Below are positions 6,511-40,364 of a stretch of DNA of 64,000 nt, in pieces. The notes under the pieces were generated by a model. It saw only the letters and a program-made list of their open reading frames with translations, ran no database searches and was not told the DNA's origin. Numbering within the stretch: the first letter of the stretch is position 1; every line of letters starts with the position of its first letter. Location: assembly GCA_045630455.1 (NCBI GenBank), contig JAZQTD010000030.1, forward strand, positions 127,243 to 191,242. The letters are read 5' to 3'. The stretch is from Candidatus Enterousia sp. (GTDB taxonomy: Bacteria > Pseudomonadota > Alphaproteobacteria > Rs-D84). The position numbers and the translations under genes were made by a program.

Positions 6511-6525
6511 TGTTTTGTCCTTTTA

Positions 6526-7221
6526 TTATCTTTGCCTTTTTATATGGTCGTTTAATGCTTGTTTAGTTTTAGGGTTCTTCGGTGCCGTCCATTTTTCCCA
6601 ATGGCGTGATTCTGAGTCCAGTGTAGAATCGTGAGTGACCATATGGTGTGGTGGCAGTGTATATGGTAAAGAAAAGCTTTCTTCAATCTTCATATCCAGA
6701 ACTATGAAATTCATTTTGTCACGAACAAAATGTACTGGTGCCAGCAATGCGCCATTAACCCATTTAGGATGCCCCCCAACACGCAATGTGCCTCCAGGTT
6801 TCAAAGCAATCGCCGCACGTCTGTAAAAGTTGACGGCGTGCTGCCAATCAGGTGAATATAATGGCAACGAATATAGTGCCCAAATTTCATCAAATTCGTT
6901 TTCAAATGCTGTGTTAACGAAATCACTGTTTATGACTGTGCGTGCTGAACCAGAATCGTTAATAAATGGGTCAACGTTTGTGACGTCGCAATTAATCTTA
7001 GCAAAATCCAGGCTGCGTTGAATCTGGGAACGACCACCTCCCACCAGTAATAATTTTTTATTGTGCAACAGTTTTTTTATATCTCGATGAGAAATCTGGA
7101 ATATCTTCATGTATGTCAACAGTGAGCGTGCAGTTGTGACACACCCACCCCTGTTAAAGAAGGATGACATTTTATCAAAATCTGTTTTTTGCCAATACAT
7201 AGCGGAGTTATTATAGGACAA
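6526..7221 (-). CDS. Class I SAM-dependent methyltransferase-like protein.
   Basis: Motif I-like LLLVGGGRS, post-I acidic NCDVTNVDP, and motif II-like DEIWALYSLP; 231 aa. Confidence 0.45.
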   Translation of the reverse strand: MSYNNSAMYWQKTDFDKMSSFFNRGGCVTTARSLLTYMKIFQISHRDIKKLLHNKKLLLVGGGRSQIQRSLDFAKINCDVTNVDPFINDSGSARTVINSDFVNTAFENEFDEIWALYSLPLYSPDWQHAVNFYRRAAIALKPGGTLRVGGHPKWVNGALLAPVHFVRDKMNFIVLDMKIEESFSLPYTLPPHHMVTHDSTLDSESRHWEKWTAPKNPKTKQALNDHIKRQR

Positions 7222-7251
7222 AAGTACAGATTGTCAATATTTTTTGTTTTG

Positions 7252-8217
7252 CTATCGGGCGACTGCTCCGGTTAATTTTTCGTGACAGATATAGTCTTTT
7301 AATTTAAAGCCTCCATCCGCTGACCAGTTTAGCATACCGCGCCAATTGTCATCTGGGATTTCAACCGTTGGTAACGGATGTGGCGTGCGCTGTAATTGTT
7401 CGCGCACCTGATCCAGATGATTTGTATAAATATGCGCATCATGTAATTCGCCTTTTAGGATGCCCGGGGTTAGCCCCGTCTCTTTGGCGTACAGCAATAA
7501 TAACAACGCGTAACTGGCAATATTATACGGAATCCCAAGGAACATATCACATGAACGCTGGGTCCAGATAAGGTTTAATTTTCCGTCGCGTGCAATTAAC
7601 TGGTGCATCATATGGCACGGCGGTAATGCCATTTGCGGAAAGTCCACAGGATTCCACGCAGAAACAATAATACGACGGTCATTTGGATTGTTTTTTAATT
7701 TATCAATGGCGTTTGCGACTTGGTCAATACCTGGACGCTCTGGGTTAAAGTTATCTGTTGGGTCTTTTTCAATTCTTGCCTTGTCCCATTGGTATTCGCC
7801 ACCAAAATGTCGCCATTGGAATCCATAGATTGGCCCTAGATCGCATTCAGAATCCGCTACAGAATTACGAACGATTTGTTTTTGTGCGTCTGTCAATGGG
7901 CCACCCTGCTCTAACATTCCGACCTTGATATTATACGCCTGTTCTACCTTGATTGGATTTGCCCATTCGTTCCAGATTTTACATTTTCTGTCCGTTAGCC
8001 ATTTTTTATCAGTTATTCCACGAATAAAAAATTCCAACTCGGTCGCGATATTTTTCAATCCCATTTTTTTAGTGGTGATTAATGGAAAGCCATTTGCCAT
8101 ATCATGTACAAATGTTGCGCCATATCCGATACCAATGTCTGGAATGCCCGTGCGATTTTGACGTACATCTGTACAGTTCTTGTAAATGTCGCCTAATATG
8201 TCTAAGTATGCCTTCAT
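7252..8217 (-). CDS. thyA: Thymidylate synthase ThyA with an internal insertion of about 50 aa.
   Basis: Motifs RTG, GFPL.TTKK, IIVSAWNP and LPPCHMMHQ with the catalytic Cys, plus RSCD and NIASYALL. Start placed at MKAYLDIL, which is preceded by an AAGGAAG Shine-Dalgarno site; the ORF-track start at 8295 is probably too far upstream. Confidence 0.85.
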   Translation of the reverse strand: MKAYLDILGDIYKNCTDVRQNRTGIPDIGIGYGATFVHDMANGFPLITTKKMGLKNIATELEFFIRGITDKKWLTDRKCKIWNEWANPIKVEQAYNIKVGMLEQGGPLTDAQKQIVRNSVADSECDLGPIYGFQWRHFGGEYQWDKARIEKDPTDNFNPERPGIDQVANAIDKLKNNPNDRRIIVSAWNPVDFPQMALPPCHMMHQLIARDGKLNLIWTQRSCDMFLGIPYNIASYALLLLLYAKETGLTPGILKGELHDAHIYTNHLDQVREQLQRTPHPLPTVEIPDDNWRGMLNWSADGGFKLKDYICHEKLTGAVAR

Positions 8218-8235
8218 TATATCTTCCTTTGGTAC

Positions 8236-8263
8236 AAAAAACGCGCCAATTGGCGCGTTTAAT
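8236..8263. terminator. Intrinsic terminator downstream of tig.
   Basis: AACGCGCCAATTGGCGCGTT hairpin plus a T-run. Confidence 0.5.
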
Positions 8264-9571
8264 TTAGCGAACAGATGCTTGTTTGAACAATTCATCTGCT
8301 GGGACTGTTTTTTCTTTGGTCTTGACGTGTGTTAACATTGCATCCAGTGCTTTGCGTTCGAAAATCATACCACGCAACATTGCCAAAGCATTTTGATTCT
8401 TGTTATAGAATTCAAATACCTGTTTTGGGTCTGGATAACGTGCTGCTTCGGCCCAAATTGCTTGTTGCAGGTCTTCGCGTGTGACTTCTACTTTGTTCTG
8501 AGTGCCCCATTCTGCCAAGATTAAGCCCAATTTAACACGACGTTCTGCATCTTTGTGTTCTTGTTTTTCATCCCATTTGTGTTCGCATTTTGCGTCGCCA
8601 CAATGTGAATGCTGGTGATCAAATTCGGATTTTGCCATATTGTATTCTTGTTCGACCAATGTTTCTGGCAAATCTAGTTTGACTTTGTCAGCCAATACGT
8701 CCAGCAATTCGTTGCGCATATCGCGTTTTGCAGCTTCATCATACTGTTCATTGATGATTTTGCGGATGTGTTCACGCAATGCTTCGACAGATTCCTGGCC
8801 AACTTGTTTTGCCAAATCGTCATTTAATTCTGGCAAGATGTGTTTGCGGACTTCGTGTACTTTGACCGCGAAACGTGCATCTTTGCCCGCCAAGTTTTCT
8901 GCATGATAGTTTTCTGGGAATTTAACATTTACATCAAATTCATCGCCAACTTTATGACCGATGATTTGATCTTCGAAGCCTGGGATAAACGAGCCAGATC
9001 CCAAAATCAAATGATGTTTAGATGCTTCGCCACCCTCGAACGCTTCATCACCAATAAAGCCCTTGAAGTCAATAACAGCGGTATCACCATTGGCAGCTTT
9101 GTATTTAGCGTCTTGTTTTTCAGCAGTGCTGCGTGATTTGCGGATGTTTTCCAGCGCAGTTTCGACTTCTTTTTCGTCCAGTTTTGCAACCTTTTTCGTC
9201 ACTGTTATTTTTTCCAAATCAACCGCAGGCAATGTTGGCAGGATATCAAATTCCATTGAATATTCTGCATCTTTGCCGATTGTCCAACCTGCCAAGTCAA
9301 CCTTGGGTGTGCCAGCCAGACGGATCTTTTTATCTGCAACGTATGATTCCAAGTCGCGGTTCATTAATTTATCAATCGCTTCGCCGTATGCAGATGCATT
9401 ATATTTTTGGCGCAGGATGTTTAATGGAACTTTGCCCGTACGGAACCCCGGCATTTTAACCTTTTTGCCGTATTCTAATAAAATTTCATCGGCGACTTTC
9501 TGCAATTCGTCCGCAGAAATCAGACCATTTACGGAATAATGTAAATCTTTGATTTTTTCTTTTTTGAACAT
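8264..9571 (-). CDS. tig: Trigger factor.
   Basis: 435 aa. N-terminal ribosome-binding region containing GFRTGKVP, a central PPIase domain, and a C-terminal arm. Confidence 0.9.
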   Translation of the reverse strand: MFKKEKIKDLHYSVNGLISADELQKVADEILLEYGKKVKMPGFRTGKVPLNILRQKYNASAYGEAIDKLMNRDLESYVADKKIRLAGTPKVDLAGWTIGKDAEYSMEFDILPTLPAVDLEKITVTKKVAKLDEKEVETALENIRKSRSTAEKQDAKYKAANGDTAVIDFKGFIGDEAFEGGEASKHHLILGSGSFIPGFEDQIIGHKVGDEFDVNVKFPENYHAENLAGKDARFAVKVHEVRKHILPELNDDLAKQVGQESVEALREHIRKIINEQYDEAAKRDMRNELLDVLADKVKLDLPETLVEQEYNMAKSEFDHQHSHCGDAKCEHKWDEKQEHKDAERRVKLGLILAEWGTQNKVEVTREDLQQAIWAEAARYPDPKQVFEFYNKNQNALAMLRGMIFERKALDAMLTHVKTKEKTVPADELFKQASVR

Positions 9572-9635
9572 ATGTTTTCCCCTAATTAATTAGAATTGCC
9601 ACGTGATTATACACTGTTTTTATATGAAAGCAATA

Positions 9636-9662
9636 ATAAAAAAATCCCCAAATTGGGGATTT
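9636..9662 (-). terminator. Intrinsic terminator after the histidine kinase gene.
   Basis: ATCCCCAATTTGGGGAT hairpin followed by a T-run, read on the minus strand. Confidence 0.5.
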
Positions 9663-10942
9663 TATATTGGTAACGTAATGCGGACACGCAGACCGCCCAA
9701 ATCACTGTTTTCTAAAAACATTTGACCGCCATGGTTCTCGAACGCTGTTTGGGCAATAGATAGTCCCAGCCCTGTACCACCAGTGTCTGTGCCGCGGGCA
9801 TCGTCCAGACGCACAAATGGTCGCATTGCATCTTTCTTTTTATCATCTGGAATGCCTGGGCCGTCGTCTTCGACAATGACTTCTACGTGATCTTCGAAAT
9901 CTTGCTCAGATATTTTTATGGTCGTTCGGGCATAACGTGCCGCGTTTTCAATAATGTTCGCAAATGCACGTGCCAGTGCCATTGGACGGGCATAGAACTG
10001 TATTGGATTGTCTGGAAAATCTGTAATAATTTTCTTGTCAGGTGCTGCGTCGCGTACGGTGCGTGTTAAAATTGGTGGTAATTCTGTTGCCTGCTCTATT
10101 TCTGGCATTTCGCCCCGCGCGAACGCCAGATAACCGTTTACCATTTCTGTCATACGGTCTATGTCGCGTATCAGGTCGGCATCCGTTGCCCCGCCCGTCT
10201 CTATATTCAGACGCATACGAGTCAGTGGTGCTTTTAGGTCGTGACTGACCGCATTAAGCATATCTGTACGTGTGCGATTGTAACGATTTAGGCGTTCTTT
10301 CATTGTTATCATCGCAGCGGCGGCTTCGCGGATTTCCTTAGATCCAGTTGGTTTGAATCCAGGTGCATCCAGACCGCGACCAAAACGCCCCGCAGCACGT
10401 GCAATGCGCTTGATGCTGCGTGTGTGCATAATAATAAACGGTGCAACCAATATTGATACGATTATCATCGCACCAATCAACCACAATATAAATACTTCGG
10501 TGCTGGTCGAATAAATGCGATACAAAGACGTACCGAATGTTGCAATCTGGTTGTCGCGAGTAGGAATATCAATAAATACCAAGCGTTTGCTTTTGTCCAT
10601 ATATATACTGGCGGGTCGTTTTAGCAGTTTGGATAACTCGAATGCCAGTTGCCCTGTTTCGGTAGCGTTATTGTCATCGCGTTTTGGTCGGTTCAAACTG
10701 GGGTTGATAGAAACATTTATACCTATATCGCGTGCCATTTGCTGGGCAGAATCCATATTGCCACTGTCCATAAAGTTCATCATTGTGGCAACTTCGCCTG
10801 CCAGTGTGCGTGCCAACGTATTGTGGACGCGTGACCAGTGGTTGCCAAAAAATGCGTTAGCAACAATTACCTGGGCAATAACCAAGGGAATTAAAATCAT
10901 TAAAATTGTACGGGCCAAGAAACTGCGTGGTGTTAATCTCAT
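9662..10942 (-). CDS. Sensor histidine kinase (HAMP, HisKA, HATPase domains).
   Basis: Two TM segments. H-box SHDLKAPLTRM. N, G1 and G2 boxes (NIIENAARYA; DDGPGIP; GGTGLGLSI). Overlaps the response-regulator gene by 4 nt. Confidence 0.8.
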   Translation of the reverse strand: MRLTPRSFLARTILMILIPLVIAQVIVANAFFGNHWSRVHNTLARTLAGEVATMMNFMDSGNMDSAQQMARDIGINVSINPSLNRPKRDDNNATETGQLAFELSKLLKRPASIYMDKSKRLVFIDIPTRDNQIATFGTSLYRIYSTSTEVFILWLIGAMIIVSILVAPFIIMHTRSIKRIARAAGRFGRGLDAPGFKPTGSKEIREAAAAMITMKERLNRYNRTRTDMLNAVSHDLKAPLTRMRLNIETGGATDADLIRDIDRMTEMVNGYLAFARGEMPEIEQATELPPILTRTVRDAAPDKKIITDFPDNPIQFYARPMALARAFANIIENAARYARTTIKISEQDFEDHVEVIVEDDGPGIPDDKKKDAMRPFVRLDDARGTDTGGTGLGLSIAQTAFENHGGQMFLENSDLGGLRVRITLPI

Positions 10943-11589
10943 TTTTCGTCTCTGTTGTTGGCGACAGTGTCTATTAGTTTATATCCACGGCCGCGAATTG
11001 TTATAATGTCTATGTTAGATAATACTATATTTAATTTGCCACGCAAGCGTTTTGCAACCATTGGTGCCGCAGGTGCAATATTGCCAATTGGATGTGTTAA
11101 TGTATACAGTAACTTCTTTTCTTCGCCAGATAGCGCAAGTAAAAGTGATGTACCATCATGATTTACAAAAAATTCTTTGTCGGCGTATGCCAGGCCAATG
11201 GGCATAATGGAATTAATGCTGGTGCCGCGATTGCGCATTATGTTGTTCAAACGCAAGATCAATTCGCGCATTTGGAATGGCTTGCCTAGATAATCGTCAG
11301 CACCACTGGACAGACCATCGATTGTATTTTCTGTGCCTGTCATCGCAGTAAGCATCAGTACGGGTGTCGTATCGCCATTTTTACGTAGTTGCTGAAGCAG
11401 TGTCAGACCGTCCATACCCGTCATCATACGGTCCAGAATAATCGCGTCAACCGCCATACGTGACAGCATGTCTGTTGCAACTTCTGCGGACTGGGCGGTT
11501 AAAACGTTGAAGTTTTCGGTGCGTAACCCGCGAGCTAACGCCCCACGCAACACATCATCGTCATCAATAATAAGAATGGTTTTGTTCAT
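10939..11589 (-). CDS. OmpR-family response regulator.
   Basis: Receiver domain with IIDDDD and the phospho-acceptor Asp in ILDRMMTGMDG, plus a winged-helix C-terminus with ITIRGRGYKL. Confidence 0.85.
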   Translation of the reverse strand: MNKTILIIDDDDVLRGALARGLRTENFNVLTAQSAEVATDMLSRMAVDAIILDRMMTGMDGLTLLQQLRKNGDTTPVLMLTAMTGTENTIDGLSSGADDYLGKPFQMRELILRLNNIMRNRGTSINSIMPIGLAYADKEFFVNHDGTSLLLALSGEEKKLLYTLTHPIGNIAPAAPMVAKRLRGKLNIVLSNIDIITIRGRGYKLIDTVANNRDEK

Positions 11590-11646
11590 TTTTATGGTCT
11601 GTGTAAGTGTTTGTGGTACGTGTAAAGCCCCTACACATACCGTGGT

Positions 11647-12570
11647 TTATTTGTCCAATGGCTCAACCGCATATTCGCCTGGCTGAATCATCATATATGG
11701 ACTGTTAGCGCCGTTGTTGCTGTCTTCGCCCAACAAAGATGCGCGGAATTTCATGCCGCTGGTTGTAAACTCTGTTTTGAAAAGCGCGTATCCAGTGCCA
11801 CCACCGGTTGTAGGACCTTGCATTCCCAGTGAATAATATCCACCCAAGATGCCATAGTCCAAGTCGATATAGTCTAGACTGACAATTAAAGATACACTGC
11901 TGATGCCGTCGCTGGTCATATTGCACGCAAATTCACGGTTGGACAATACTGCCTCTGAATTAGCGGGGACCATTAAGTCCATAACAGTTGGTTCGCACAC
12001 ACGGTCGATACCGTTTACCAAGAAATCATATGTCATACCAACGGTTGCTTTGGATAGACCTGTTGAAACGCTGACCTGGGAAATCGTGGCCTTTGGTATT
12101 TTGACCATTGCGTTGGCAATGCCACTGCGAACAGGGAAAGAAATTCCAGACTGTAAGCAATCTCGTGAGAATGGGTCGGCTTCGCATATATAAAGGCGCG
12201 AATGTGCGTTCATCATAAACATATTTGCCAGACTGTTGAACAAGAATGTACGTGTAATACGGTCGTTCAGACGTGTGCAACCAAAATTGCGGCAAATAAC
12301 CATTGGGCGATTTGCAAACATAACACCAGGGTGTGCGGCCTCTTCTGCGGCGCGAGCATCCATAATATTCTGGTCATAGTCCAGGCTGTCTGCGCGATTC
12401 ATAAATTCTGTTTCTGGGATAAAATTAGGGTCGTCTGGGTACGCATAGTACGACTGAACCGGCGTTTCAGTGTAAATCGTTTGAAAATTATCCATTACAA
12501 TATCAGTGTTCGCGTACGCGTTTGGTGCGACTAAACCTAATAAGAAACCAGTTAAAAAGAGTCTTTTCAT
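11647..12570 (-). CDS. Secreted hypothetical protein.
   Basis: Signal peptide MKRLFLTGFLLGLVAPNAYA; 307 aa with several Cys; no recognised domain. Confidence 0.5.
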   Translation of the reverse strand: MKRLFLTGFLLGLVAPNAYANTDIVMDNFQTIYTETPVQSYYAYPDDPNFIPETEFMNRADSLDYDQNIMDARAAEEAAHPGVMFANRPMVICRNFGCTRLNDRITRTFLFNSLANMFMMNAHSRLYICEADPFSRDCLQSGISFPVRSGIANAMVKIPKATISQVSVSTGLSKATVGMTYDFLVNGIDRVCEPTVMDLMVPANSEAVLSNREFACNMTSDGISSVSLIVSLDYIDLDYGILGGYYSLGMQGPTTGGGTGYALFKTEFTTSGMKFRASLLGEDSNNGANSPYMMIQPGEYAVEPLDK

Positions 12571-12712
12571 TTTATTGTGCCTTTTTCTCTTATGACGAAT
12601 TTTAGAACATTTTATATAATTGTGTCAAAACAAAAATATTTTTATTGAAAATTGATGTCTGTTTGTTCTAAGTTTAATGCGAAAAGAACATTTTTACGAA
12701 AGGTGAAATCAA

Positions 12713-13372
12713 ATGGTTGATCTTATTATTGGCGGAGAATCTGGGAAAATACACGCGGTTTATCATAAGTCTGCAACACCGGGCGCGCCGTTGGCAGTGG
12801 TGCTGTCGGGGAATCCACGACAAAAGTATCATATGAATGACCGTGTCACATATGCTATGTTCCGCGCGTTTATGGATATTGGATTTTCAGTTGTGCGATT
12901 TAACTATCGTGGGGTCAATGATTCCGAAGGGGCATTGGGTACGACCGCTGAAAATATGCTGGATATTGCGACGGTGATTGACTGGATTCAAAATCATAAT
13001 GAAGACAGTGATCAAATCTGGCTGGCGGGGCATCAATTGGGGGCGTGGTATGTATTGCAGGCAATGATGCGCCGTCCAGAAGTGTCTGGGTTTGCGTTGG
13101 TGTCTCCGGATTCTGCTGTTTCTGATTTTGCTTTCTTGTCACCACGCCCAAATCGCGGGCTGTTGTTACAGGGGGCAAATGAATCCGAAGATGCGCGCTC
13201 GTTTGCAACTCATCTGACTCAGGTATTGAAAAAGCAAGCACAGATTGATTTGGAAACAATTCGTGTAAAAAATGCGGATGCTCATTACAGTCAGCCTGCT
13301 GACCTGCGCCAGATGTACAATGATTTGAAGGCCTATGTTGGTCGTGAAAGCGCAGAAGATAAGTTGTTATAA
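12713..13372 (+). CDS. Alpha/beta-hydrolase-fold protein with Gln in the nucleophile-elbow position (GHQLG).
   Basis: 219 aa. Resembles short esterase-like hydrolases, but the G-x-S-x-G elbow reads LAGHQLGAW, with codon CAA confirmed in the DNA. Its stop lies 3 nt before the ruvB start. Confidence 0.5.
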
Positions 13373-13374
13373 AT

Positions 13375-14364
13375 ATGATGAATAAAGAACGTTTTTTGGA
13401 TGCCAATGTGCCAGACGAATTTGGGGCGACTATTCGTCCACGAACTTTGTCGGATTTTATTGGACACGAAAGTTTAAAGCAAAATTTGTCGGTGTTTGTT
13501 TCGGGGGCGCGTAATCGTGGTGAAGCAATGGATCATGTTTTGCTGTATGGTCCTCCGGGACTGGGCAAGACAACATTGGCACATATTGTGGCAAATGAAC
13601 TGGGGACTAATTTTCGTGCAACAGCGGCGCCAATGCTGACCAAGCAAGGGGATTTGGCAGCGATTCTGACTGCGTTAGAGCCTATGGATGTGCTGTTTAT
13701 TGATGAAATTCACCGTTTGCCAACTGCAATCGAAGAAGTTCTTTATTCCGCAATGGAAGACTTCAAATTGGATATTATGCTGGGCGAAGGGCCTAGTGCA
13801 AAAAGTGTGCGGATTGACCTGCCTCCGTTTACGTTGGTGGGCGCGACAACCCGTACGGGATTGCTGTCTAATCCATTGCGCGATAGATTTGGTATTGATT
13901 TGCGTTTGACTTTTTATGGTCCAGAAGATTTGGCGAAAATTATTATGCGCAGTGCAAATATCTTAGGTACACCTATTGATAATGATGGGGCGTTGATGTT
14001 GGCACGATCTGCACGTGGTACACCACGTATTGCAAATCGCCTGTTAAAGCGTGCGCGTGACTTTGCGAGTGCGCTGTCCAAGAATCAAATTACCGCAGAC
14101 ATTATTAAAACTACTCTATTCCAGTTGCATATTGATGAATGTGGACTGGATGAAATTGACCGTGAATATATGAATACTGTTATTAAACATTACGCGGGTG
14201 GACCGGTTGGAATTGAAAATCTTTCTGCGGCATTGTCTGAGCCGGCAGATACAATCGAAGATGTTATTGAGCCGTATTTGATGCAACTGGGCTTTGTTCA
14301 GCGTACCCCACGTGGTCGCGTTATTACTGATGCGGGATATAAACATTTGGGACTGGAAAAATAG
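13375..14364 (+). CDS. ruvB: Holliday junction branch-migration ATPase RuvB.
   Basis: Walker [10 protein letters not shown], Walker [10 protein letters not shown], sensor motifs, and a winged-helix C-terminus. Confidence 0.9.
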
Positions 14365-24494: not shown

Positions 24495-25412
24495 ATGAAA
24501 CATATACCTGTATTATTGAATGCGGTGCTGGATGCCTTGGGGGATATTCGAGGACTGCATATTGTGGACTGCACATTTGGTGCGGGTGGATATACGCGTG
24601 CATTTTTAGAGCGTGGAGCGCGTGTGACTGCGTTTGACCGCGATCCAAATGTCTTGGTTGATGTTGATGCGGTGCGTGCGGAATATGGCGACAGATTTAA
24701 CTTTATACCACGTGCGTTTTCGGCACTGAGGGAATTAGACGAGCGGTTTGATGCGATTGTGTTCGATCTGGGGATTTCGTCTATGCAGATAGACAATGGG
24801 GAACGTGGATTTTCTTTCCGTATGGATGCGCCATTGGATATGCGTATGGATAACAGAGAGAATGAGCAAAGAGCAAATAGCAAAGAGCAAATATTGACGG
24901 CTGCTCAATTGATAGAAAATTTGTCTGTTGTGGAACTGGCAACGATTTTACGCGACTATGGTGATGTGCGTAATGCGATGGGGGTTGCGCGGGCAATAAA
25001 AAATGCAGCACCCAAAACTACGTTTGAATTGCGTGATTTGATACATAATCCAAAGGATGTTGCACCGATATTTCAAGCGCTGCGCATTGCGGTTAATGAT
25101 GAGATGGGTGAAATCGAACTCGCTTTGGCGACTGTACCAGAACACTTAACCGATGGTGGCAAATGTATTTGTGTGACATTCCATTCAATCGAAGACCGAA
25201 TTGTAAAAAATACTTTTCGTGATTGGACAATTGCGCCCGGCGATCCAAGAATGCCAACGGTGGCGGCTGCGCCATTTGTATTAATAAAAACCGCCCTGCC
25301 CGATGAAGCGGAACTGGAAAATAATCCTCGCGCGCGGTCTGCGCATATGCGTGGTGTGATAAAAACAGCCCGAAAAGGGGGAATGGAATATGAAAAAGTC
25401 TGTAACAGATAA
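24495..25412 (+). CDS. rsmH: 16S rRNA m4C1402 methyltransferase RsmH (MraW).
   Basis: HIPVLL start, VDCTFGAGGY SAM-binding motif, FDLGISSMQ. Confidence 0.85.
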   Translation: MKHIPVLLNAVLDALGDIRGLHIVDCTFGAGGYTRAFLERGARVTAFDRDPNVLVDVDAVRAEYGDRFNFIPRAFSALRELDERFDAIVFDLGISSMQIDNGERGFSFRMDAPLDMRMDNRENEQRANSKEQILTAAQLIENLSVVELATILRDYGDVRNAMGVARAIKNAAPKTTFELRDLIHNPKDVAPIFQALRIAVNDEMGEIELALATVPEHLTDGGKCICVTFHSIEDRIVKNTFRDWTIAPGDPRMPTVAAAPFVLIKTALPDEAELENNPRARSAHMRGVIKTARKGGMEYEKVCNR

Positions 25413-25770
25413 AGTTATTCAGGCAGACAATGCCAAAAAGGTTAATCCGCGTGATTTATCAAGTGACCAAGATTTAACGATTGGTTTGATGAATTTGATT
25501 GCGATTGAAAATATTGTCTCAGGCAGTCAAATTGCTGAAATGGTCGCGAAGGTTCGTGAAAAGTTGATGTCACGGGTGGTTCTGGATATTAAGTTGATGA
25601 ACGAATCCTATAAAATGCTGGGGCGTGCGATGGCGTTGATTAATGATGGGATGCGCGCGTTACCAGATACCAGTCTGGCATATAAGCATTTTGATTCTGC
25701 GTACGTAATGTATTCTATGTTTTGGGGACTGAATATGGGATTTGTAAAAATTGAAGATATTTATAAATAA
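25390..25770 (+). CDS. Hypothetical protein (126 aa) overlapping the rsmH 3' end.
   Basis: ATG preceded by an AAGGGGGAA Shine-Dalgarno site; not a membrane protein, so unlikely to be ftsL. Confidence 0.4.
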   Translation: MKKSVTDKVIQADNAKKVNPRDLSSDQDLTIGLMNLIAIENIVSGSQIAEMVAKVREKLMSRVVLDIKLMNESYKMLGRAMALINDGMRALPDTSLAYKHFDSAYVMYSMFWGLNMGFVKIEDIYK

Positions 25771-25837
25771 GGTGTTGATTCAAATGTCAAAAAAATGTTA
25801 AAATATCTTTAAGAGAGAAGTGAAAGTGAAGAGTCCT

Positions 25838-28162
25838 ATGAATAAAATTTTCCGGTTTTCTGCGCTGATTGCGGCTGTTTTTGCCGCAAATTTGGCAAGT
25901 GCGATTGGTCCACAAAATTCACGTGCGACGACGGCGGGCAATGTCGCGCCGGCGCGTGCGGCGGGTCGTGAGGTACAACGTGTCGGAGAAGGCGCAAATG
26001 CACGTTCTATTGCTGCGCGTTCATCTACGGTTTCTCGTGCAGCAGCAACACCTGGCATCGCTTCGCGTGCAGATGTTGCAACCGCAGCACGAAATGCTCG
26101 TAATGCCAATACTATCTCGCGCAGTGCGGTTGCAGCGCGTAGTGCGCGAGTGGCTGCATCTCCTGTTCGTAGTGCAGTGAATACAAAACGTAGTAATGTG
26201 TCGCGTGCAGCACAGTCACGTGCGACAGCAATATTTGAAGACGTTTCTAAGATTGGTGGTGGTTATGCAAAATGTCGTGAAGCGTATGCGACATGTATGG
26301 ATCAATTTTGTGCCAAGGCAAGTGATACGTATCGCCGTTGTTTTTGCAGTGATCGTTTTACAGGTTTTCGTGAAACTGAGGACGCTCTTGATCAAGCGAA
26401 GATTTTGTTGCAACAATTTGAAGATAATAACTTGAATGCGGTTGATAAAACAGCAGCAGAAGTTAGTGCTATGTATTCTGCCACGGTTGGTGAGGCTGCT
26501 ATTAAAAATGATATCAGTGGTGCGGCATCTTTGTTGGCGGAAATTAGCGATTTGATGTCCGGCAAAAAGAAGGCGTTCAGTTCTTCATCATCTACATCGT
26601 TGGGGGTAATGTCATTGGATTTTTCGTCAGATATTGGTGATATTTGGGGTGGTTCTTCGTCTGTATCGTCGATATTCGGCGGAGGCAGTGGTGTAGACGT
26701 GACCAGTCTGGAAGGAGAAGCTTTGTTTAATCAGGTTCATAAACAGTGTTCAGCACTGGTGTCGGAAAACTGTCAAAGCAACGCGGTCGCGAATATGGCA
26801 AAAAGTGCGTACGGTATTATGATTACTCAAGATTGTAATGCTTATGAAAGAAGTATCGACACCAAGCGTCAACAAGTGCAAAATACAGTGCGTCAGGCAG
26901 AAAAAATTCTGCGAGAGGCACGTTTAGAGGAATATCGTGCTCATAATTCCCAAGATGTAAATGACTGTTTAGATAAGGTTCGTACGGCTATGTTGTCGGA
27001 TACTGCGTGTGGTGCGAATTATAAACGTTGTTTGGACTACACTGGTGCGTATATCAATCAGTCTACAGGAGAACCCATATATTCACAGCGTCTGTTTGAG
27101 TTGACTGATTTGATTTTGCTGGATGGTGCTAGTGGCGGTGGGGATGTTTTGACTAAAAACGAAAAGTTTAATCAGTTCCTTGAATCACGTAAAATGTTTG
27201 TGACGAGTGCTTTGGATTCTTGTCGTGATATTTCTGAATTGGTTTGGACGGAATTTAAGCGAGCAGCATTGATTGAAATCGCCCAGGCGCAAGATGAAAA
27301 AATAGAAAGTGTAAAGTCTTCTTGTTTGGAAGTTGTGCGTGAATGCTATGATACGCAGTCCGATGCATTGAAAAGTTTTGATGATACAACAGCAGATGCA
27401 GCTGGTGCGATGAGTGCGTATGTTGCACGTTCTATGTGTCAAGAGAAAGTCGTTGCCTGTGCATCGTTGTATGGTGAGACGGGTGATTGTAAGTTTGATG
27501 GTAATGGCAAATTATTAGATGGCGGTCGTTGTGGATTGTCCGCGTTGTTAGAATACGTAGATGCGGTTGATACTGTGAGAGCCGCAGAGGGATGTGAAGT
27601 TGCTTTAACAAATTATGTTACGGAAATGTGTACACCGACGACCGATTTTGGTGCATATCCACAGCCTTGTGCTACTTTGAGTCAGAAGGACTTGGAAGAA
27701 CAGATAAAAAAACGCGCATCGTTATATTGTATAGATGGTGCGGGTGTTAAATACGATAAGTATGAAGACGGAGCTCAAAATTTTAACGATACCGTTGTAG
27801 AAGATAAGATAACTTCTTTGATAAATCGTTTGATGTCTGATATTTCAAGTTATTTGAAGACGGAATGTGAGGCTGTGGGTGGTTTATGGTATGTAACACA
27901 ACCCGATGGTACGAATATATTAAGTGTTTTCTATCACAGTATTGCTGGGAAGATCGAAGATTTAAAAACTTACGGTGTTTGTGTGGAACAGACAGTCAAA
28001 CTGGCTTGCGAACGTCAAGATGAGTTAACTGGTAATAATGGATATGCAACATATAACTATGCTTTGGATACGTGTGAGCTTTCCGATGAATGGTATCAAT
28101 TCCAATGCACAGATGTGTTGGGTGGAACGTGGAGTAATGATGTATGTTCATGGGTGTATTAG
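25838..28162 (+). CDS. Secreted protein with an Ala/Arg/Ser low-complexity N-region and a large Cys-rich domain; unknown family.
   Basis: Signal peptide MNKIFRFSALIAAVFAANLASA. ARS-rich region around aa 30-140. More than 30 Cys, including CREAYATCMDQFC...CFC. The motif is shared with the ORF at 39123..40364. Confidence 0.6.
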   Translation: MNKIFRFSALIAAVFAANLASAIGPQNSRATTAGNVAPARAAGREVQRVGEGANARSIAARSSTVSRAAATPGIASRADVATAARNARNANTISRSAVAARSARVAASPVRSAVNTKRSNVSRAAQSRATAIFEDVSKIGGGYAKCREAYATCMDQFCAKASDTYRRCFCSDRFTGFRETEDALDQAKILLQQFEDNNLNAVDKTAAEVSAMYSATVGEAAIKNDISGAASLLAEISDLMSGKKKAFSSSSSTSLGVMSLDFSSDIGDIWGGSSSVSSIFGGGSGVDVTSLEGEALFNQVHKQCSALVSENCQSNAVANMAKSAYGIMITQDCNAYERSIDTKRQQVQNTVRQAEKILREARLEEYRAHNSQDVNDCLDKVRTAMLSDTACGANYKRCLDYTGAYINQSTGEPIYSQRLFELTDLILLDGASGGGDVLTKNEKFNQFLESRKMFVTSALDSCRDISELVWTEFKRAALIEIAQAQDEKIESVKSSCLEVVRECYDTQSDALKSFDDTTADAAGAMSAYVARSMCQEKVVACASLYGETGDCKFDGNGKLLDGGRCGLSALLEYVDAVDTVRAAEGCEVALTNYVTEMCTPTTDFGAYPQPCATLSQKDLEEQIKKRASLYCIDGAGVKYDKYEDGAQNFNDTVVEDKITSLINRLMSDISSYLKTECEAVGGLWYVTQPDGTNILSVFYHSIAGKIEDLKTYGVCVEQTVKLACERQDELTGNNGYATYNYALDTCELSDEWYQFQCTDVLGGTWSNDVCSWVY

Positions 28163-28180: not shown

Positions 28181-28218
28181 AACCAAGGGGCACATCATAA
28201 AGTTGTGCCCCTTTTTGT
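28181..28218 (+). terminator. Intrinsic terminator after the Cys-rich protein gene.
   Basis: AAGGGGCACATCATAAAGTTGTGCCCCTTTTTG. Confidence 0.55.
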
Positions 28219-28281: not shown

Positions 28282-28357
28282 GGGTTAGTAGCTCAGTGGT
28301 TAGAGCGGAGCGCTCATAACGCTTTGGTCGTGGGTCCAAGTCCTACCTAACCCACCA
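28282..28357 (+). tRNA. tRNA-Met (anticodon CAT), elongator type or possibly the lysidine-modified tRNA-Ile2; CCA is encoded.
   Basis: Cloverleaf with acceptor GGGUUAG/CUAACCC, anticodon loop CUCAUAA, and a G1-C72 pair, which rules out an initiator tRNA. Confidence 0.9.
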
Positions 28358-31821: not shown

Positions 31822-34683
31822 ATGAAACGCGTATTGTGTTTTTTGTTTAGTGTTTTTCTTGGCTGGACCGCGTATGCAGCCCAGGCTGTTAATGTTGAAT
31901 ATATTCATGATTTAATACTGCAAAAATGGAATATTTCTGTGCCATATAATTCCGCACTAAATAATATGCAGGCTGTGGCTAACATGAAATATTTATTAAC
32001 ATCAGTTGATGTAGCGAATGCTATGTTAAATGGGGGCGCGATTACAGATTGGGGAAACAGCACATATGCAACAAACCAAGTGGCAGATACCGTTGCCGCT
32101 AACCAGGTGATTGCAAATCTGATTAAATTGCCGGTTGGCGAATATCCGTTTGAAATAAAAACGACCAAGGATACCATATACTTCAGTTTTAGTATGTCGG
32201 CAAAAGGAAGCTTTGTTGTAAACTGGGGGGATGGCAATATAGAAGTAATAACCAACCCAGATACCAGTACTGTTACATATGATCATACGTATAATGTTGC
32301 AAAAAATTATACTATTGGCATAAAGGGAACTGCGACCGCATACAGTAATGGTTCTTCTATACCGGTGATTAGTTTTGATGGAAATGAAAACATTTCGATG
32401 ATATTTGGTTCTGTTGGCCAAGTCTTTCCAACATTAGCAAATGGTACGAATCCAAAATTTTATTACACATTTGCAAATTTGCCCAATATATCTGGTGGAA
32501 TTCCAAGTACATTGTTTAGCGGTATAACGGGTGTACCCGCAAAAAATATGTTTTATGGAACTTTTTATGGTTCTGCTGGATTAACCGGTGGCATTCCCGG
32601 GACATTGTTTTCAGGACTGGATGGCGCGCCAACCGAAGGAATATTTTATCGTACGTTCGAAAAATGTACGGGCTTAAGTGGTCCTATCCCATCCGATTTA
32701 TTCGCTGGGATTCATGGTACACCGGCACGTGATATGTTTCACAGCACGTTTTCTGGGTGCAAGGGACTGACAGCGATACCAGATGGACTGTTTGCCGGTA
32801 TAAATGGCGCGCCCGCACAACGTATGTATAATGCTACTTTTTATGAATGTTCGGGCATAACAAGTAATATCCCAGACAAGCTATTTGGTACATTTAATGG
32901 TGCTCCTCAAGAATTGATGTTTGGTAACACGTTTCATGGGTGTACTAACCTAACGGGGAAAATCCCTGTTGATTTGTTTGCTGGGATAACTGGGGCGCCA
33001 ATACAGCGTATGTTTGAAGGCACGTTCAGTATGTGTTCTGGATTAACGGGGCAAATACCGGCGAATTTATTTTCAAGCATGGGGGGGACGCCAGCCGCCA
33101 GTATGTTTTATAATACATTTACAGGATGTTCTGGGTTGACCGGCACTGTGCCAGCGGGACTGTTTGCAACATTTAGTGGTGCGCCAGCACAGCGTATGTT
33201 TAATAAAACGTTTTATAACTGTAATCAGCTGACAGGAATTGATAGTGGCGTGTTTGGTGAGTTGTCCGGTGATGCTCAAGCTGGAATGTTTGAAGAAATG
33301 TTTAATCGTGCAACCGCTTTGCGTGGTCCTTCTGCTAAGATTGGGAGTAAGTATTTGTATGAAATATGGCCCGATGCGACCAGCGCCCAGGTTGGAAAAA
33401 TGTATTCTGAGGCAACAGGTTTGTCAGATTATGAATATATACCAATTGTATGGGGGGGGCTGGGACAGCAACGACCAGATTATAAACTGTATTTAGATCA
33501 TTATTATCAGCGGGTGGGAAGCAATGGAGATGTCCGTGATTCTGATTATTTGCTAATGATTTCAGCAGCCGGTAAGTACAACATTGATTGGGGAGATGGA
33601 ACAGAAGAAGTTATTGAAAAAAATACAGTTGGAGAGCAATGGTTTGGACATGATTATGCTAATGATGGCGAATATCTTGTTCGTATTGGAGGACGGGCCA
33701 CAGAGTATGCCAGTGATCCTGATTTATCAACTGTAATATTAGGTAGCAGTATAGCGTGCATAGATGAGTGGAATCGTCCGGGTGGAAAATGTCCCCTTGC
33801 ATTAACACATATTGATGGATGTTTAGGGTGCGTTTTCCCAACATTGGAAAATGGCTCGCAACCACGATTTATTGACACATTTGCAGATGCAATGGATTTT
33901 TATAACATACCAGCCGGACTGTTTTCGGATATTAATGGTGCACCCGTGAAAAATATGTTTCAACGAACTTTTTCCTTTACATCTTTGTCAACGGTGCCGG
34001 CGGGTTTATTCGCAGGAATCCAGGGGGCGCCAGCGGAATATATGTTTAGCAGCACTTTTGCTGGTACCTATTTAGAATCAATACCAGAAGGATTGTTTGC
34101 GGGGATTAAAGGACCTCCGGCAAAAGGGATGTTTAAAGGAACGTTTACTGAAGCCGCAATAGAATCAATACCAGAAGGATTGTTTGCAGGAATCAAAGGA
34201 CCTCCGGCCGAGGATATGTTTAATGCTACATTTTCGGCTAACTGGGGACTAGAATCAATCCCCGAAGATTTATTTGCGGGCATTCAAGGTCCACCTGCCG
34301 CAGGTATGTTCGCCGGTACTTTTAGATTTGCACCAATAACATCCCTACCGTCGGGCTTATTCGCCGGGATTCAGGGACCGCCGGCCGAGGATATGTTTAA
34401 TAGTACATTTGCGAATAATTGGGGACTGGAATCAATACCTGAAAACTTATTTGCGGGGATTGATACCACCGCGCCATCTGCACGGTATATGTTTGCAGAA
34501 ACATTTAGGGACTGCTTTAACTTGACTGGACCGTCCGCACGTATTAATGGACGATACCTGTATAATATTTGGCCCGATGGATACGATATGTATTCAGGAT
34601 GCGAAGGGCTGACTGATTATAATTGTATCCCAAGTGCATGGGGCGGTGGTGGCCATAATTGCCTATGGACCGATCCTACATGA
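31822..34683 (+). CDS. Giant secreted modular repeat protein built from two modules, each a PKD-like domain followed by 7-8 novel 29-31-aa repeats (LRR-like) and a conserved C-cap.
   Basis: Signal peptide MKRVLCFLFSVFLGWTAYA. PKD-like segments VNWGDGNIEV...YDHTY and IDWGDGTEEV...GHDY. Repeat consensus LFAGIxGAPAxxMFxxTFxxCxGLTGxIPxx. Caps YLYEIWPD...GLSDYEYIPIVWGG and YLYNIWPD...GLTDYNCIPSAWGG. Confidence 0.7.
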   Translation: MKRVLCFLFSVFLGWTAYAAQAVNVEYIHDLILQKWNISVPYNSALNNMQAVANMKYLLTSVDVANAMLNGGAITDWGNSTYATNQVADTVAANQVIANLIKLPVGEYPFEIKTTKDTIYFSFSMSAKGSFVVNWGDGNIEVITNPDTSTVTYDHTYNVAKNYTIGIKGTATAYSNGSSIPVISFDGNENISMIFGSVGQVFPTLANGTNPKFYYTFANLPNISGGIPSTLFSGITGVPAKNMFYGTFYGSAGLTGGIPGTLFSGLDGAPTEGIFYRTFEKCTGLSGPIPSDLFAGIHGTPARDMFHSTFSGCKGLTAIPDGLFAGINGAPAQRMYNATFYECSGITSNIPDKLFGTFNGAPQELMFGNTFHGCTNLTGKIPVDLFAGITGAPIQRMFEGTFSMCSGLTGQIPANLFSSMGGTPAASMFYNTFTGCSGLTGTVPAGLFATFSGAPAQRMFNKTFYNCNQLTGIDSGVFGELSGDAQAGMFEEMFNRATALRGPSAKIGSKYLYEIWPDATSAQVGKMYSEATGLSDYEYIPIVWGGLGQQRPDYKLYLDHYYQRVGSNGDVRDSDYLLMISAAGKYNIDWGDGTEEVIEKNTVGEQWFGHDYANDGEYLVRIGGRATEYASDPDLSTVILGSSIACIDEWNRPGGKCPLALTHIDGCLGCVFPTLENGSQPRFIDTFADAMDFYNIPAGLFSDINGAPVKNMFQRTFSFTSLSTVPAGLFAGIQGAPAEYMFSSTFAGTYLESIPEGLFAGIKGPPAKGMFKGTFTEAAIESIPEGLFAGIKGPPAEDMFNATFSANWGLESIPEDLFAGIQGPPAAGMFAGTFRFAPITSLPSGLFAGIQGPPAEDMFNSTFANNWGLESIPENLFAGIDTTAPSARYMFAETFRDCFNLTGPSARINGRYLYNIWPDGYDMYSGCEGLTDYNCIPSAWGGGGHNCLWTDPT
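34081..34470 (+). repeat. Tandem 87-bp coding repeats (about 4.5 copies, high DNA identity) inside the repeat-protein gene.
   Basis: ATACCAGAAGGATTGTTTGC(G/A)GG...GGACCTCCGGC... recurs with an 87-bp period at about 34081, 34168, 34255, 34342 and 34429. Confidence 0.6.
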
Positions 34684-37870: not shown

Positions 37871-39052
37871 TTAGACATCAAAATTGTAGTTCTTGACCGA
37901 TTTTACAATTGCAGCAACCAATTTGTCTTGGTGTGATGATGTTTTAAGTAGTTTTTCTTCGGCAGCATTGGACAAGTGTCCCAATTCCAACAATGCCCCA
38001 GGAACAGTTGAGCGCAACACCGCAAATGGTGCGTGACGTACGTCTGGACCGGGTTGTTGAGCAATTGAATTTTTCTTGAACGCACGAGCGGCTCCGTTGG
38101 CGTATTCTTCACTCATCTCTGCAACAGCGTGTTGTTGCAATGAAGACAACGCAATACGAATATTTTCTTCGAATTCTGTAAAACCTTCTACCCCGATTTT
38201 GTCGGCAGCATTTTCAGCCTCGGCCAGTTTTTTAGCCTCTTCGTCTGAAGCCTTTTCGGAAAGTGTGTAAACCGAAAAACCCTTCATCGCGCGACTGGGG
38301 TTTGCGTTCGCGTGCAAGGATATAAATAAATCAGCCTTTTTCCGTTCTGCAATCGCGGCACGTTCTGCCAATTTTAAATACGTGTCACCGCCGCGCGTCA
38401 AATAGGTCTGAAATCCATTGGCATCCAGTTGAGTCTTTAATTTTTTCGCAACTGATAAAACTACGTCTTTTTCGCGTGTTCCACCCTTACCAATACATCC
38501 AGGATCTTTGCCACCGTGTCCTGCGTCAACAACAACAATGTATTTTTTTGTGGGTGTGGTTGACTTTTTATTTGTCATGGTGGTGGTCGCCGCAGTACCA
38601 GCAGACTGAGATGCCGCACCTGTGCCGGCTACAAAATCCAAGACCAGGCGATAATCATTATCACCATTTGGTTCCAGGATCATAATTTGTGACTTTTGAA
38701 TTTGGGCGATTGATTGATTTAGATTAACAATAATTTGTAGTGTATCCCCAGATTGAGCCTGAACTAGGGATTTTACCAACGTTCCCGATGCTAGTTTCGG
38801 ATTTAAACCTGTATTGGCTGCTGTGTTCGACAATGTCACAACTAATTGGTTTGCTGGATATGACAAAGTATAAGAGGGGCGCGTTGAGGTTTCGATTACC
38901 AAACGCGTTTTTCCACCGGGTTGCATACCGGTGCGCAAAGAACGCAATGAATTACGTGCTGCGAACGCCATACGTGGCAATGCTGTTAGCACCAAGACAC
39001 CCAACCCTGTTGTTTTCAAAACACTGCGACGAGATATTTTCATAAGGAACAT
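37871..39052 (-). CDS. amiC: N-acetylmuramoyl-L-alanine amidase (Amidase_3, AmiC-like), Tat-exported.
   Basis: Twin-arginine signal MKISRRSVLKTTGLGVLVLTALP. Amidase_3 core VVDAGHGGKDPG...ISLHAN. The internal start avoids overlap with the neighbouring gene; the ORF track extends to 39280. Confidence 0.75.
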   Translation of the reverse strand: MFLMKISRRSVLKTTGLGVLVLTALPRMAFAARNSLRSLRTGMQPGGKTRLVIETSTRPSYTLSYPANQLVVTLSNTAANTGLNPKLASGTLVKSLVQAQSGDTLQIIVNLNQSIAQIQKSQIMILEPNGDNDYRLVLDFVAGTGAASQSAGTAATTTMTNKKSTTPTKKYIVVVDAGHGGKDPGCIGKGGTREKDVVLSVAKKLKTQLDANGFQTYLTRGGDTYLKLAERAAIAERKKADLFISLHANANPSRAMKGFSVYTLSEKASDEEAKKLAEAENAADKIGVEGFTEFEENIRIALSSLQQHAVAEMSEEYANGAARAFKKNSIAQQPGPDVRHAPFAVLRSTVPGALLELGHLSNAAEEKLLKTSSHQDKLVAAIVKSVKNYNFDV

Positions 39053-39122
39053 TATATCAAAAAAACACCTGTTATTCAAGCGTATTGATGGGAATAAAAA
39101 TCCCGCACGTGGCGGGCTTCGT

Positions 39123-40364
39123 TTATTTGCTGATGCAGCTGGCGAACGTTTGTGCCAAAAGAGATGTTTCAGACTGAGATAATTGTGCCACAGGAATAGT
39201 ATAGCATCGTGCACTGTCGCGGATAACAAAAACCTTGGTGCCACGTTTGTATGCAGTTTGCATATTATCCATTTGAGCACTTGTTAAAAATGCGTTTTGG
39301 GTCAGTGCGTTATTCGTCAAGCCTGCCTGAACTACTTGGTACGCAGTTGCATAGTCCCATAATTCAGAACGCGATTCGATTTCCATAAAAACAGACTGTG
39401 TTTCATATGGATTTTCAAGCTTTACATTAGTTGTTGGAAAAGCTGTCCCAATCGCCAGTGCAGCGACAGTTTGCAGAGCTGTAGGCTCGTTTGAAGAAGC
39501 AACTGTGCCAGTTGTGTTGATTTGCAAATTATCGCCACATGCTAAATTCATGCGATTTGTATAGCCTGCCAAAACAGCATCAACAGCCGCTTGCCAATCT
39601 GCACCTTTTTCATTCAGATTCAGGCTTACGATTTTTTCAGCCCAGCCCCAAATATTTGCACCTACGTTGCCAGCACTAGCGAAACGCGATACCATTTCAG
39701 CACTGCCCCCAGGAACGCCCGAGCCACAGTAATCTGTCAAATAAGAATTAAGTTTACTAGATGTTTCGTTGCTATATGCAAGTGCAACCGAATGGCATGC
39801 CATTGCTGCTTCTAATTCTTGGCGACGTTGGATACATAAATCAGAATTAGACTTAGATAACAGGGTTGCCATATTTGCCATAGATAAGTAGGACATTAGT
39901 TCCTGTTGCACATAGGATGGGCACAGACGTGCGGCCGTATTCATGCCACCTGGACTGGTGCGAGTGTTCGTGTTATATTGGGGCAATAATACTGAATTGT
40001 CTTTCTGTAGACACAATAATGTATAGTTGTACAATTCGGATTCCGTAGCATATTGACACTTAGATGTGCGCTGACCTGGGACGGTTGTTATATCCCCGCA
40101 ATATTCGGATAAACACGCATAAATCTTTTCGCGACACGCCGTATCAACATCTGGCTGGGTTACCATATAGTATGTATTACGCTGGTTAGCCTTGTACGCG
40201 TTGGCCAACCCTTGGTTGCCACGTGCGCCGTCTGTGCTGGGCGTATACATAGAAACACTGCGCGAATTAGATGCGGAATTTGCAGCATTTACAGTTCCCA
40301 TAGTTGCAGCATTGGCACCAAAACACAGGCTAAACAAGCCAAAATATATTAGAACTTTATTCAT
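39123..40364 (-). CDS. Secreted Cys-rich protein, paralogous to the 25838..28162 product.
   Basis: Signal peptide MNKVLIYFGLFSLCFGANA. Low-complexity N-region. Shared motif DTACREKIYACLSEYC, compare AKCREAYATCMDQFC. Confidence 0.6.
   Translation of the reverse strand: MNKVLIYFGLFSLCFGANAATMGTVNAANSASNSRSVSMYTPSTDGARGNQGLANAYKANQRNTYYMVTQPDVDTACREKIYACLSEYCGDITTVPGQRTSKCQYATESELYNYTLLCLQKDNSVLLPQYNTNTRTSPGGMNTAARLCPSYVQQELMSYLSMANMATLLSKSNSDLCIQRRQELEAAMACHSVALAYSNETSSKLNSYLTDYCGSGVPGGSAEMVSRFASAGNVGANIWGWAEKIVSLNLNEKGADWQAAVDAVLAGYTNRMNLACGDNLQINTTGTVASSNEPTALQTVAALAIGTAFPTTNVKLENPYETQSVFMEIESRSELWDYATAYQVVQAGLTNNALTQNAFLTSAQMDNMQTAYKRGTKVFVIRDSARCYTIPVAQLSQSETSLLAQTFASCISK

Follow-up and report, generated by a model that had tools for sequence, protein, structure and literature searches.

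A 64-kb stretch of DNA from a Candidatus Enterousia genome (contig JAZQTD010000030.1), referred to below as the window and meaning the analysed stretch at its full length, carries a gene for an exported, cysteine-rich protein whose family appears to be confined to one lineage of gut bacteria. This gene, here called gene A, occupies positions 25838..28162 of the forward strand, stop codon included, and encodes protein A of 774 amino acids (aa). It is a real gene under strong purifying selection. A first reading of the letters, made without database searches (the sequence-only reading), had placed a 774-residue protein with a signal peptide at these positions, after rsmH and a 126-aa open reading frame (ORF), and both the translation and the ORF listing agree with it. 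An in-frame GTG at 25826 offers an alternative start; close homologs begin with MKSPMNKIF, and the true start of the gene may be this GTG, which leaves an uncertainty of 12 nt.

The gene is flanked by possible transcription signals. In the 67-bp gap ahead of it, a consensus scan found a promoter-like site at 25775..25804 (+), TTGATT and TAAAAT separated by 18 nt with an upstream TG; such sites are, taken together, no more numerous in this region than in shuffled sequence, so that this one is weak evidence for a promoter. Starting 25 nt past the stop codon, a hairpin resembling an intrinsic terminator can be read at 28187..28218 (+), formed by GGGGCAC, an 11-nt loop and GTGCCCC and followed by TTTTTGT. 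It was missed by the terminator scanner, which allowed loops of at most 8 nt. A tRNA gene (28282..28354) comes after gene A and its hairpin and T-run. On the opposite strand, an open frame of 103 codons (25798..26109, -) covers the GC-rich part of gene A that encodes its N-terminal tail. Three of the six reading frames are open across the tract encoding arginine, alanine and serine, and similar antisense frames lie over it in 75 of 84 related loci, wherever such a tract occurs. The antisense frame is open because of the composition of the GC-rich tract and is most likely a compositional by-product, not a gene, as the sequence-only reading had supposed.

Protein A is built of a signal peptide, a polycationic tail, a universal helical core with 16 cysteines and a variable cysteine-rich C-terminal region. 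The signal peptide (residues 1-22; 25838..25903, +) has a basic n-region, a hydrophobic core of 13-14 residues and an A-S-A cleavage motif. The N-terminus reads MNKIFRFSALIAAVFAANLASA and can be parsed as MNKIFR, then FSALIAAVFAANL, then ASA, in the manner of a Sec signal; the basic-hydrophobic-small-x-small pattern, with its small-x-small cleavage site, is kept across the homolog alignment. No lipobox was found in the signal peptide, either in the sequence itself or in the alignment, and this peptide is the sole hydrophobic segment of the whole protein.

Directly behind the signal peptide lies a tail of 105 aa (residues 23-127; 25904..26218, +), which is disordered and polycationic as judged by its composition, its GC content and a predicted local distance difference test score (pLDDT) of about 30. 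The 121-aa stretch in which the residues were counted contains 32 alanines, 17 arginines and 15 serines, and the GC content is 55% in the tract vs 41.5% in the rest of the gene. The tail of this copy has a net charge of about +15. Over the family, the tails measure 90-148 aa, carry a net charge of +9 to +17, show a median ratio of 15 arginines to 1 lysine and are virtually free of hydrophobic residues. A loose [VAS]-[AS]-R-[SA]-A motif can be recognised in the tail of protein A, and no tandem repeat was found in the DNA encoding it by a repeat test.

The other 647 aa form an acidic body, helical for the most part, whose median net charge in the family is -36. The universal core (residues 128-545; 26219..27472, +) is acidic, consists of long helices and holds 16 cysteines. 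It is followed by the lineage-variable C-terminal region (residues 546-774; 27473..28159, +), delimited by conservation and by the cysteine matrix described below, which contains 12 further cysteines; its end is modelled as a small alpha/beta domain (residues 682-771). Conservation, expressed as the frequency of the majority residue, is 0.86 at residues 128-248, 0.79 at 291-545 and 0.73 at 546-600. Beyond residue 600 the alignment shows many indels and the value drops to 0.46-0.53. The sequence-only reading had proposed a low-complexity stretch of about 110 aa followed by a cysteine-rich domain of roughly 600 aa; its count of more than 30 cysteines has to be lowered to 28.

An AlphaFold2 model of protein A, built on an alignment of 112 sequences, has a mean pLDDT of 70 and a predicted template modelling score (pTM) of 0.46. 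Disorder is modelled at residues 15-139 and 249-284 (pLDDT about 30-40), and long helices at 315-369, 463-514, 516-545 and 563-598 (pLDDT up to about 93). Comparison of sub-alignments by hhalign gave no significant internal repeat, the best P value being 0.047.

Cysteine makes up 3.6% of protein A, far more than chance would give (binomial P about 2e-8): in the pooled products of 45 other window genes its share is 1.0%. The cysteine-rich part opens, as the sequence-only reading had stated, with the motif CREAYATCMDQFC, which lies at residue 146. None of the 28 cysteines varied in a first set of 30 homologs or in a later one of 112 (52-71% identity), and 106 of the 112 sequences have a mature cysteine count of exactly 28; the pattern is thus conserved in related genomes. 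The cysteines were also tabulated in 149 cluster representatives, aligned to the family profile. No full-length member, not even among the relatives of 900-1176 aa, lacks any of the first 16 (C146 to C541). The other 12 are found in the Enterousia type only: they are invariant within the Enterousia group and absent or replaced in distant members of the family. C551 and C565 vanish together, along with the loop between them.

The arrangement of these residues bears on whether they pair with each other or bind something else. Four helical C-x6-C motifs start at residues 146, 391, 496 and 534. Between helices 463-514 and 516-545 of the model the chain turns back at residue 518. C496/C503 and C534/C541 lie mirror-symmetrically on either side of this point, as they would in a helical hairpin with two staples. 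Alternatively, the cysteines might be metal or cofactor ligands or redox-active thiols, making protein A a periplasmic metal-binding or redox-buffer protein. Such a role would suit the very high cysteine density and a host that is an anaerobic fermenter with no reported respiratory chain, in which oxidative folding is not a given. The spacings speak otherwise, as no CxxC, CxxCH, CxxCxxC or iron-sulfur-type spacing occurs in the sequence and the cysteines stand seven residues apart on long helices. Histidine, the usual co-ligand, accounts for 3 of the 774 residues, and the even, invariant counts, the joint loss of C551 and C565 and the twin C-x6-C hairpin all suit pairing. We therefore give the ligand or redox role very little credence. 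An even and conserved number of mature cysteines, together with their loss in pairs, is the sequence signature of disulfide-bonded exported proteins, and the spacing, the hairpin symmetry and the scarcity of histidine lead in the same direction, so that structural disulfides would be favoured in protein A, as far as sequence and model can tell.

No known family could be linked to the protein. The best match in a Pfam scan was DUF6514 (E = 0.18, 12.4 bits vs a cut-off of 23.9), NCBIfam gave no match, and the one PHROGs match was weak (E = 5e-4), covered 80 residues of a long helix and led to a family whose function is unknown. A profile search of the sequences in the Protein Data Bank (PDB) yielded 0 matches at E <= 1. 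Foldseek searches with the model gave best E values of 1.0 against the PDB and 0.23 against viral structures. The Pfam, NCBIfam and PHROGs scans were equally uninformative for ORF126 and protein B (both discussed below), for the neighbours in related genomes and for nine distant members of the family; a profile search of PDB sequences with protein B likewise returned nothing. Where the sequence-only reading recognised no known domain, these sequence and structure searches thus also found no match to a characterised family. The A family is uncharacterised, order-specific and without detectable relatives.

Within its own lineage the family is large. At least 938 homologs were found in a collection of 5.8 billion proteins, all of them unnamed or called "hypothetical" and none with a Pfam domain. 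A profile search of 1.84 billion cluster representatives gave 814 clusters, defined at 50% identity, at E <= 1e-3 and 387 at E <= 1e-30. Relatives occur in at least 582 species-level genomes; the source names given are Candidatus Enterousia and uncultured Alphaproteobacteria/Rickettsiales, and the material is from the gut of sheep, deer, yak, buffalo, horse, chicken and human. Of ten distant members that were looked up, four have a named source, in each case a "Rickettsiales", "Proteobacteria" or "Pseudomonadota bacterium" metagenome-assembled genome. On these sequence matches, the family appears confined to one lineage, the gut alphaproteobacterial order Rs-D84 (Candidatus Enterousia) with its reduced genomes; the window itself carries an alphaproteobacterial tmRNA and a gene for GcrA. 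Enterousia has been placed in this order, with genomes of about 0.75-1.0 Mb that lack the tricarboxylic acid cycle and a respiratory chain and encode MreB, RodA and MrdA (PMC12306168). An obligate symbiotic or parasitic lifestyle, with metabolites taken from other cells, has been predicted for the lineage, and its many hypothetical membrane proteins have been suggested to act in cell-cell interaction; flagella are reported to be missing, and type IV pili are reported for another lineage only (PMC12306168). No description of the A family was found in searches of the literature on Enterousia, Rs-D84 and cysteine-rich periplasmic proteins.

Distant members share the plan of protein A: a signal peptide, a cationic tail of 100-210 aa rich in serine, threonine, alanine and arginine, and a cysteine core, which in them begins with C-R-x-x-Y-x-x-C-M-D-[EQ]-F-C. 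Their C-terminal regions differ from that of protein A and exceed it in cysteine content (43-70 cysteines in total); some of them hold short cysteine-rich repeats. Nine such proteins of 1022-1176 aa have no Pfam domain. The C-terminal repeats of one distant member, and also those of a 515-aa cysteine-rich neighbour described below, loosely recall the cysteine-rich repeats of protist variant-specific surface proteins (VSP) or of furin-like proteins, a lead for which Pfam gives no support.

In the related locus L084, a distant paralog (P0369, 1176 aa) lies at 10001..13531, away from the rsmH context. Divergent to it, at 5288..9703 (-), are a gene for a 540-aa protein of the Protochlamydia outer-membrane (Pom) family (PF17251, E = 3.4e-9) and three genes of unknown function; a pair encoding alpha-2-macroglobulin and penicillin-binding protein 1C (PBP1C) adjoins this group. 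Two genomes have a second, divergent paralog, in L073 (14004..16676, -) and L081 (14036..16786, -). It matches the core only (profile positions about 66-578) and is encoded on the strand opposite to the ortholog, 1.5 kb downstream of it.

The gene upstream of gene A on the same strand is rsmH (24495..25412, +), which encodes the 16S rRNA m4C1402 methyltransferase and was assigned by the Pfam domain Methyltransf_5 on its ortholog. Between the two, directly upstream of gene A, lies ORF126 (25390..25770, +), a short form of a conserved, lineage-specific family of about 200 aa. Its frame overlaps the stop of rsmH by 23 nt, and 67 nt separate it from gene A. In the window dnaE stands directly ahead of rsmH and mraZ is missing. 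Over the 84 related loci, the gene is accompanied by rsmH upstream in 82, by dnaE in 81, by a gene for a 515-aa cysteine-rich secreted protein downstream in 69, by the ORF126 family directly upstream in 66, by a divergent gene with a helix-turn-helix (HTH) motif in 54 and by gpmI in 53; the 515-aa neighbour is absent from the window.

The ORF126 family has at least 7998 matches that are 72-80% identical across the lineage. Its long form, such as that at 9329..9943 in the related locus L001, ends in an invariant VNCCIE resembling a CaaX box; the 126-aa form of the window lacks this C-terminus and an internal segment. The ORF126/204 family is modelled by AlphaFold2 as a soluble four-helix bundle with generic fold matches only, and no membrane segment is visible by eye in ORF126. 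The 515-aa neighbour (12449..13996 in L001) contains about 22 cysteines, of which 14 stand in alignment columns with at least 90% conservation; Pfam gave no match. It might have supplied the long C-termini of distant A-family members by gene fusion; a comparison with these regions gave no matches, and it is also unrelated to protein A.

The placement of gene A after rsmH is ancient and fixed, and in this positional sense the sequence-only reading was right to see it in the place of the division and cell wall (dcw) genes. A functional meaning does not follow. Protein A, possibly with ORF126, might be a lineage-specific division or peptidoglycan-remodelling factor standing in the slot of ftsL, ftsI and the mur genes. 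This idea draws on the contiguity of rsmH, ORF126 and gene A, with its frame overlap and short gap, on the order conserved in nearly all of the related loci, and on the long disordered linker joined to a periplasmic domain, which loosely recalls proteins of the FtsN type. Yet dnaE, the HTH gene and gpmI are equally syntenic, as is usual in reduced genomes, so the linkage to rsmH is unspecific and says little about function; besides, distant members of the family sit in other contexts and gene A has a possible promoter of its own. In the Pfam and NCBIfam scans, neither protein A nor ORF126 showed an FtsL, penicillin-binding protein (PBP), PBP-dimer, transpeptidase or SPOR domain, and no fts or mur gene was found either in the window or in the sequence up to 10 kb away from the L001 ortholog. 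As candidates for FtsL or FtsI themselves, both proteins were rejected: such domains are missing, the signal peptide of protein A looks cleavable, unlike a membrane anchor, and ORF126 is predicted to be soluble. A part in division or peptidoglycan remodelling is thus very unlikely.

A second exported protein of the window, protein B (413 aa; 39123..40364, -), had been taken for a paralog of protein A in the sequence-only reading. It does contain a similar motif, CREKIYACLSEYC, at residue 77. No paralogy can be demonstrated, as no significant similarity extends past the signal peptide: BLASTP of A against B gave E = 0.12-0.29, hhalign of the two family profiles aligned the signal peptides alone (4.6% probability), and a search of the window ORFs with the A profile by hmmsearch found protein A only. 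The trimmed N-terminal modules of the two proteins gave P = 0.017, and the motif of protein B aligns similarly weakly (P = 0.02-0.09) to the C-x6-C helices of protein A at 146, 391 and 534. The recurrent unit C-x6-C-[LMAY]-[DS], present in four copies in A and one in B, is a building block; it does not show that the two proteins share an ancestor.

Protein B represents a separate family with 958 matches; its 12 mature cysteines are all invariant, and 31 of 31 sequences have 12. Its gene is directly upstream of that for an N-acetylmuramoyl-L-alanine amidase of the AmiC type (37871..39043, -), exported by the twin-arginine translocation (Tat) route and identified by the Pfam domains AMIN and Amidase_3; prfB is divergent and lies upstream of the pair (37871..40364). 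The tandem is kept in the related locus L086, where B is 76% and AmiC 77% identical, and protein B may be a partner or regulator of the amidase.

The reading we prefer, held tentatively and at somewhat less than even chances, is that protein A is a disulfide-stapled envelope protein retained by its cationic tail. It would be exported by Sec and cut by signal peptidase I after A-S-A. The acidic body of about 650 aa would then fold in the periplasm, its long helices being pinned by intramolecular disulfides, 14 in this protein and 8 within the family-wide core. The arginine tail of 105 aa would hold this rigid body in the envelope electrostatically, its partner being an anionic polymer of the envelope (peptidoglycan, lipopolysaccharide or a glycan that contains phosphate) or else the acidic bodies of adjacent copies. 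Protein A would serve there as a structural or adhesive component, diversified through its variable cysteine-rich C-terminal region. What we infer is that the cysteines form disulfides, that protein A sits in the envelope and is anchored there by its tail, and that it has a structural or adhesive function; the binding of the tail to any polymer is pure conjecture.

The surroundings are consistent with such a location. TolQ and the Tat-exported AMIN-AmiC protein are encoded in the window, by which an outer membrane and peptidoglycan are implied, and the TagF-like and Stealth phosphotransferases described below could make an anionic, phosphate-rich glycan. The distant paralog lies alongside genes for a Pom-type outer-membrane protein, PBP1C and alpha-2-macroglobulin. 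In 41 of the 84 related loci, a polytopic membrane protein of 178 aa with invariant CPVC and NGGHA motifs is encoded between rsmH and the ORF126 family (8777..9313 in L001). It has no Pfam match and, judged by these motifs, is a candidate membrane thiol-disulfide oxidoreductase for the adjacent cysteine-rich exported proteins.

Several points weigh against the envelope-retained, disulfide-stapled protein. The gut is a reducing environment, which argues against stable surface disulfides. The pTM of the model makes the arrangement of the helices uncertain, and the CPVC protein is absent from the window locus. Finally, no respiratory chain is reported for the lineage (PMC12306168), by which oxidation through DsbB and quinone becomes doubtful.

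The main rival to this reading is that protein A is a surface-displayed or released adhesin or effector acting on a partner cell, which could be another microbe, a protist of the gut or a cell of the animal host. In that case the conserved core would serve as a delivery or anchoring module, and the variable cysteine-rich C-terminus a ligand-binding head. A conserved N-terminal part with swapped cysteine-rich C-termini is typical of diversifying surface proteins, the lifestyle predicted for the lineage is that of an obligate symbiont or parasite feeding on the metabolites of other cells, and most relatives encode a second cysteine-rich secreted protein, of the 515-aa family, directly downstream. 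The route to the cell surface is the difficulty: Sec is the one export signal in protein A, neither an autotransporter barrel nor a C-terminal sorting signal was seen, nor any neighbour belonging to a secretion system, and the lineage is diderm (TolQ, AMIN-AmiC, a Pom-type porin), with no evident way across the outer membrane. Its genome of less than 1 Mb is reported to be without flagella, and type IV pili are reported for another lineage only. Furthermore, the invariance of the 12 C-terminal cysteines in the Enterousia group indicates a constrained rather than a hypervariable region. An adhesin or effector is accordingly judged unlikely, though less so than the other alternatives.

Other genes of the window can be mentioned briefly. 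An ORF of 953 aa (31822..34683, +) has no Pfam domain and matches phrog_9915, a phage family of unknown function with a profile of 1813 positions, at an E value of 6.5e-46; L001 has no more than a 177-aa gene in the equivalent place. On account of both, this ORF looks like an insertion of phage-related origin. A 219-aa protein (54669..55328, +) carries an Mtd_N domain (N-domain of the phage major tropism determinant) and matches a PHROG tail protein. It adjoins genes for a TagF-like CDP-glycerol glycerophosphotransferase and a Stealth phosphotransferase (55352..56539, -; 56548..57684, -), which suggest a phosphate-containing surface glycan. Two further proteins, of 697 aa (1416..3509, +) and 641 aa (52558..54483, +), gave only sub-threshold Pfam matches of the coiled-coil type and enlarge the set of big proteins in the lineage that lack annotation.

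Members of Rs-D84 (Candidatus Enterousia) occur widely in the guts of humans, ruminants, horses and birds; they are uncultured, have genomes of less than 1 Mb and are thought to depend on partners. A protein kept in at least 582 species-level genomes with its cysteines frozen is very likely central to the envelope or to contact with the partner. If these cysteines form disulfides, it becomes a question how an anaerobe without a reported respiratory chain oxidises its periplasmic proteins. In practical terms, the 16-cysteine core provides a clean sequence marker for the lineage, and protein A, having no known fold relatives, is a candidate for structure determination. Sequences of the family were already present in databases as "hypothetical protein"; new here are the three-part architecture, the universal 16-cysteine core, the lineage restriction and the rejection of the ideas of a paralog and of dcw replacement.

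Among known systems, FtsL and FtsI/PBP3 have only the position in common with protein A, directly downstream of rsmH on the same strand. Sel1-like-repeat (SLR) proteins, such as Hcp of Helicobacter and EnhC of Legionella, are exported and helical, belong to host-associated proteobacteria and bear disulfides placed regularly on their helices, as would protein A if its predicted disulfides form. They have one disulfide per 36-aa repeat, whereas protein A has C-x6-C motifs on very long helices, and no Pfam match to Sel1/SLR or tetratricopeptide repeats (TPR) was found in it. With the twin-Cx9C and twin-Cx3C (CHCH) proteins of the mitochondrial intermembrane space, protein A would share the principle of an antiparallel hairpin closed by two staples. 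Their spacing is x9 or x3, in contrast to the x6 of protein A, where the unit is embedded in a bacterial protein of about 650 aa that is predicted to be periplasmic, and no sequence relationship exists.

The closest functional analogues, by analogy and not by homology, would be OmcA and OmcB from the outer membrane complex of chlamydiae (COMC). Like protein A as read here, they are exported to the envelope, rich in cysteine and made by host-dependent bacteria whose genomes are reduced. The N-terminal region of OmcB is likewise basic and binds anionic glycans, and a gene of the Protochlamydia Pom family adjoins a distant paralog of protein A. The two differ in that OmcB is a beta-rich repeat protein and protein A is predicted to be alpha-helical; the host of protein A is an alphaproteobacterium, not a chlamydia, and no match to Chlam_OMP6 or DUF11 was obtained in Pfam at E <= 1. 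In chlamydiae the envelope owes its rigidity to disulfide bonds (PMC6752827). Cross-linking by intermolecular disulfides is a feature of the COMC; what is seen in protein A is the invariance and even number of its cysteines. In its boldest form, which we regard as rather improbable, the comparison would make protein A the main block of a disulfide-stabilised envelope layer or attachment organelle, evolved separately in a partner-dependent lineage of anaerobic gut Alphaproteobacteria without a respiratory chain. Its oxidative folding would be the work of a new, quinone-independent membrane oxidoreductase, namely the CPVC protein found in the operon of many relatives, and the layer would be a helical, non-homologous counterpart of the COMC.

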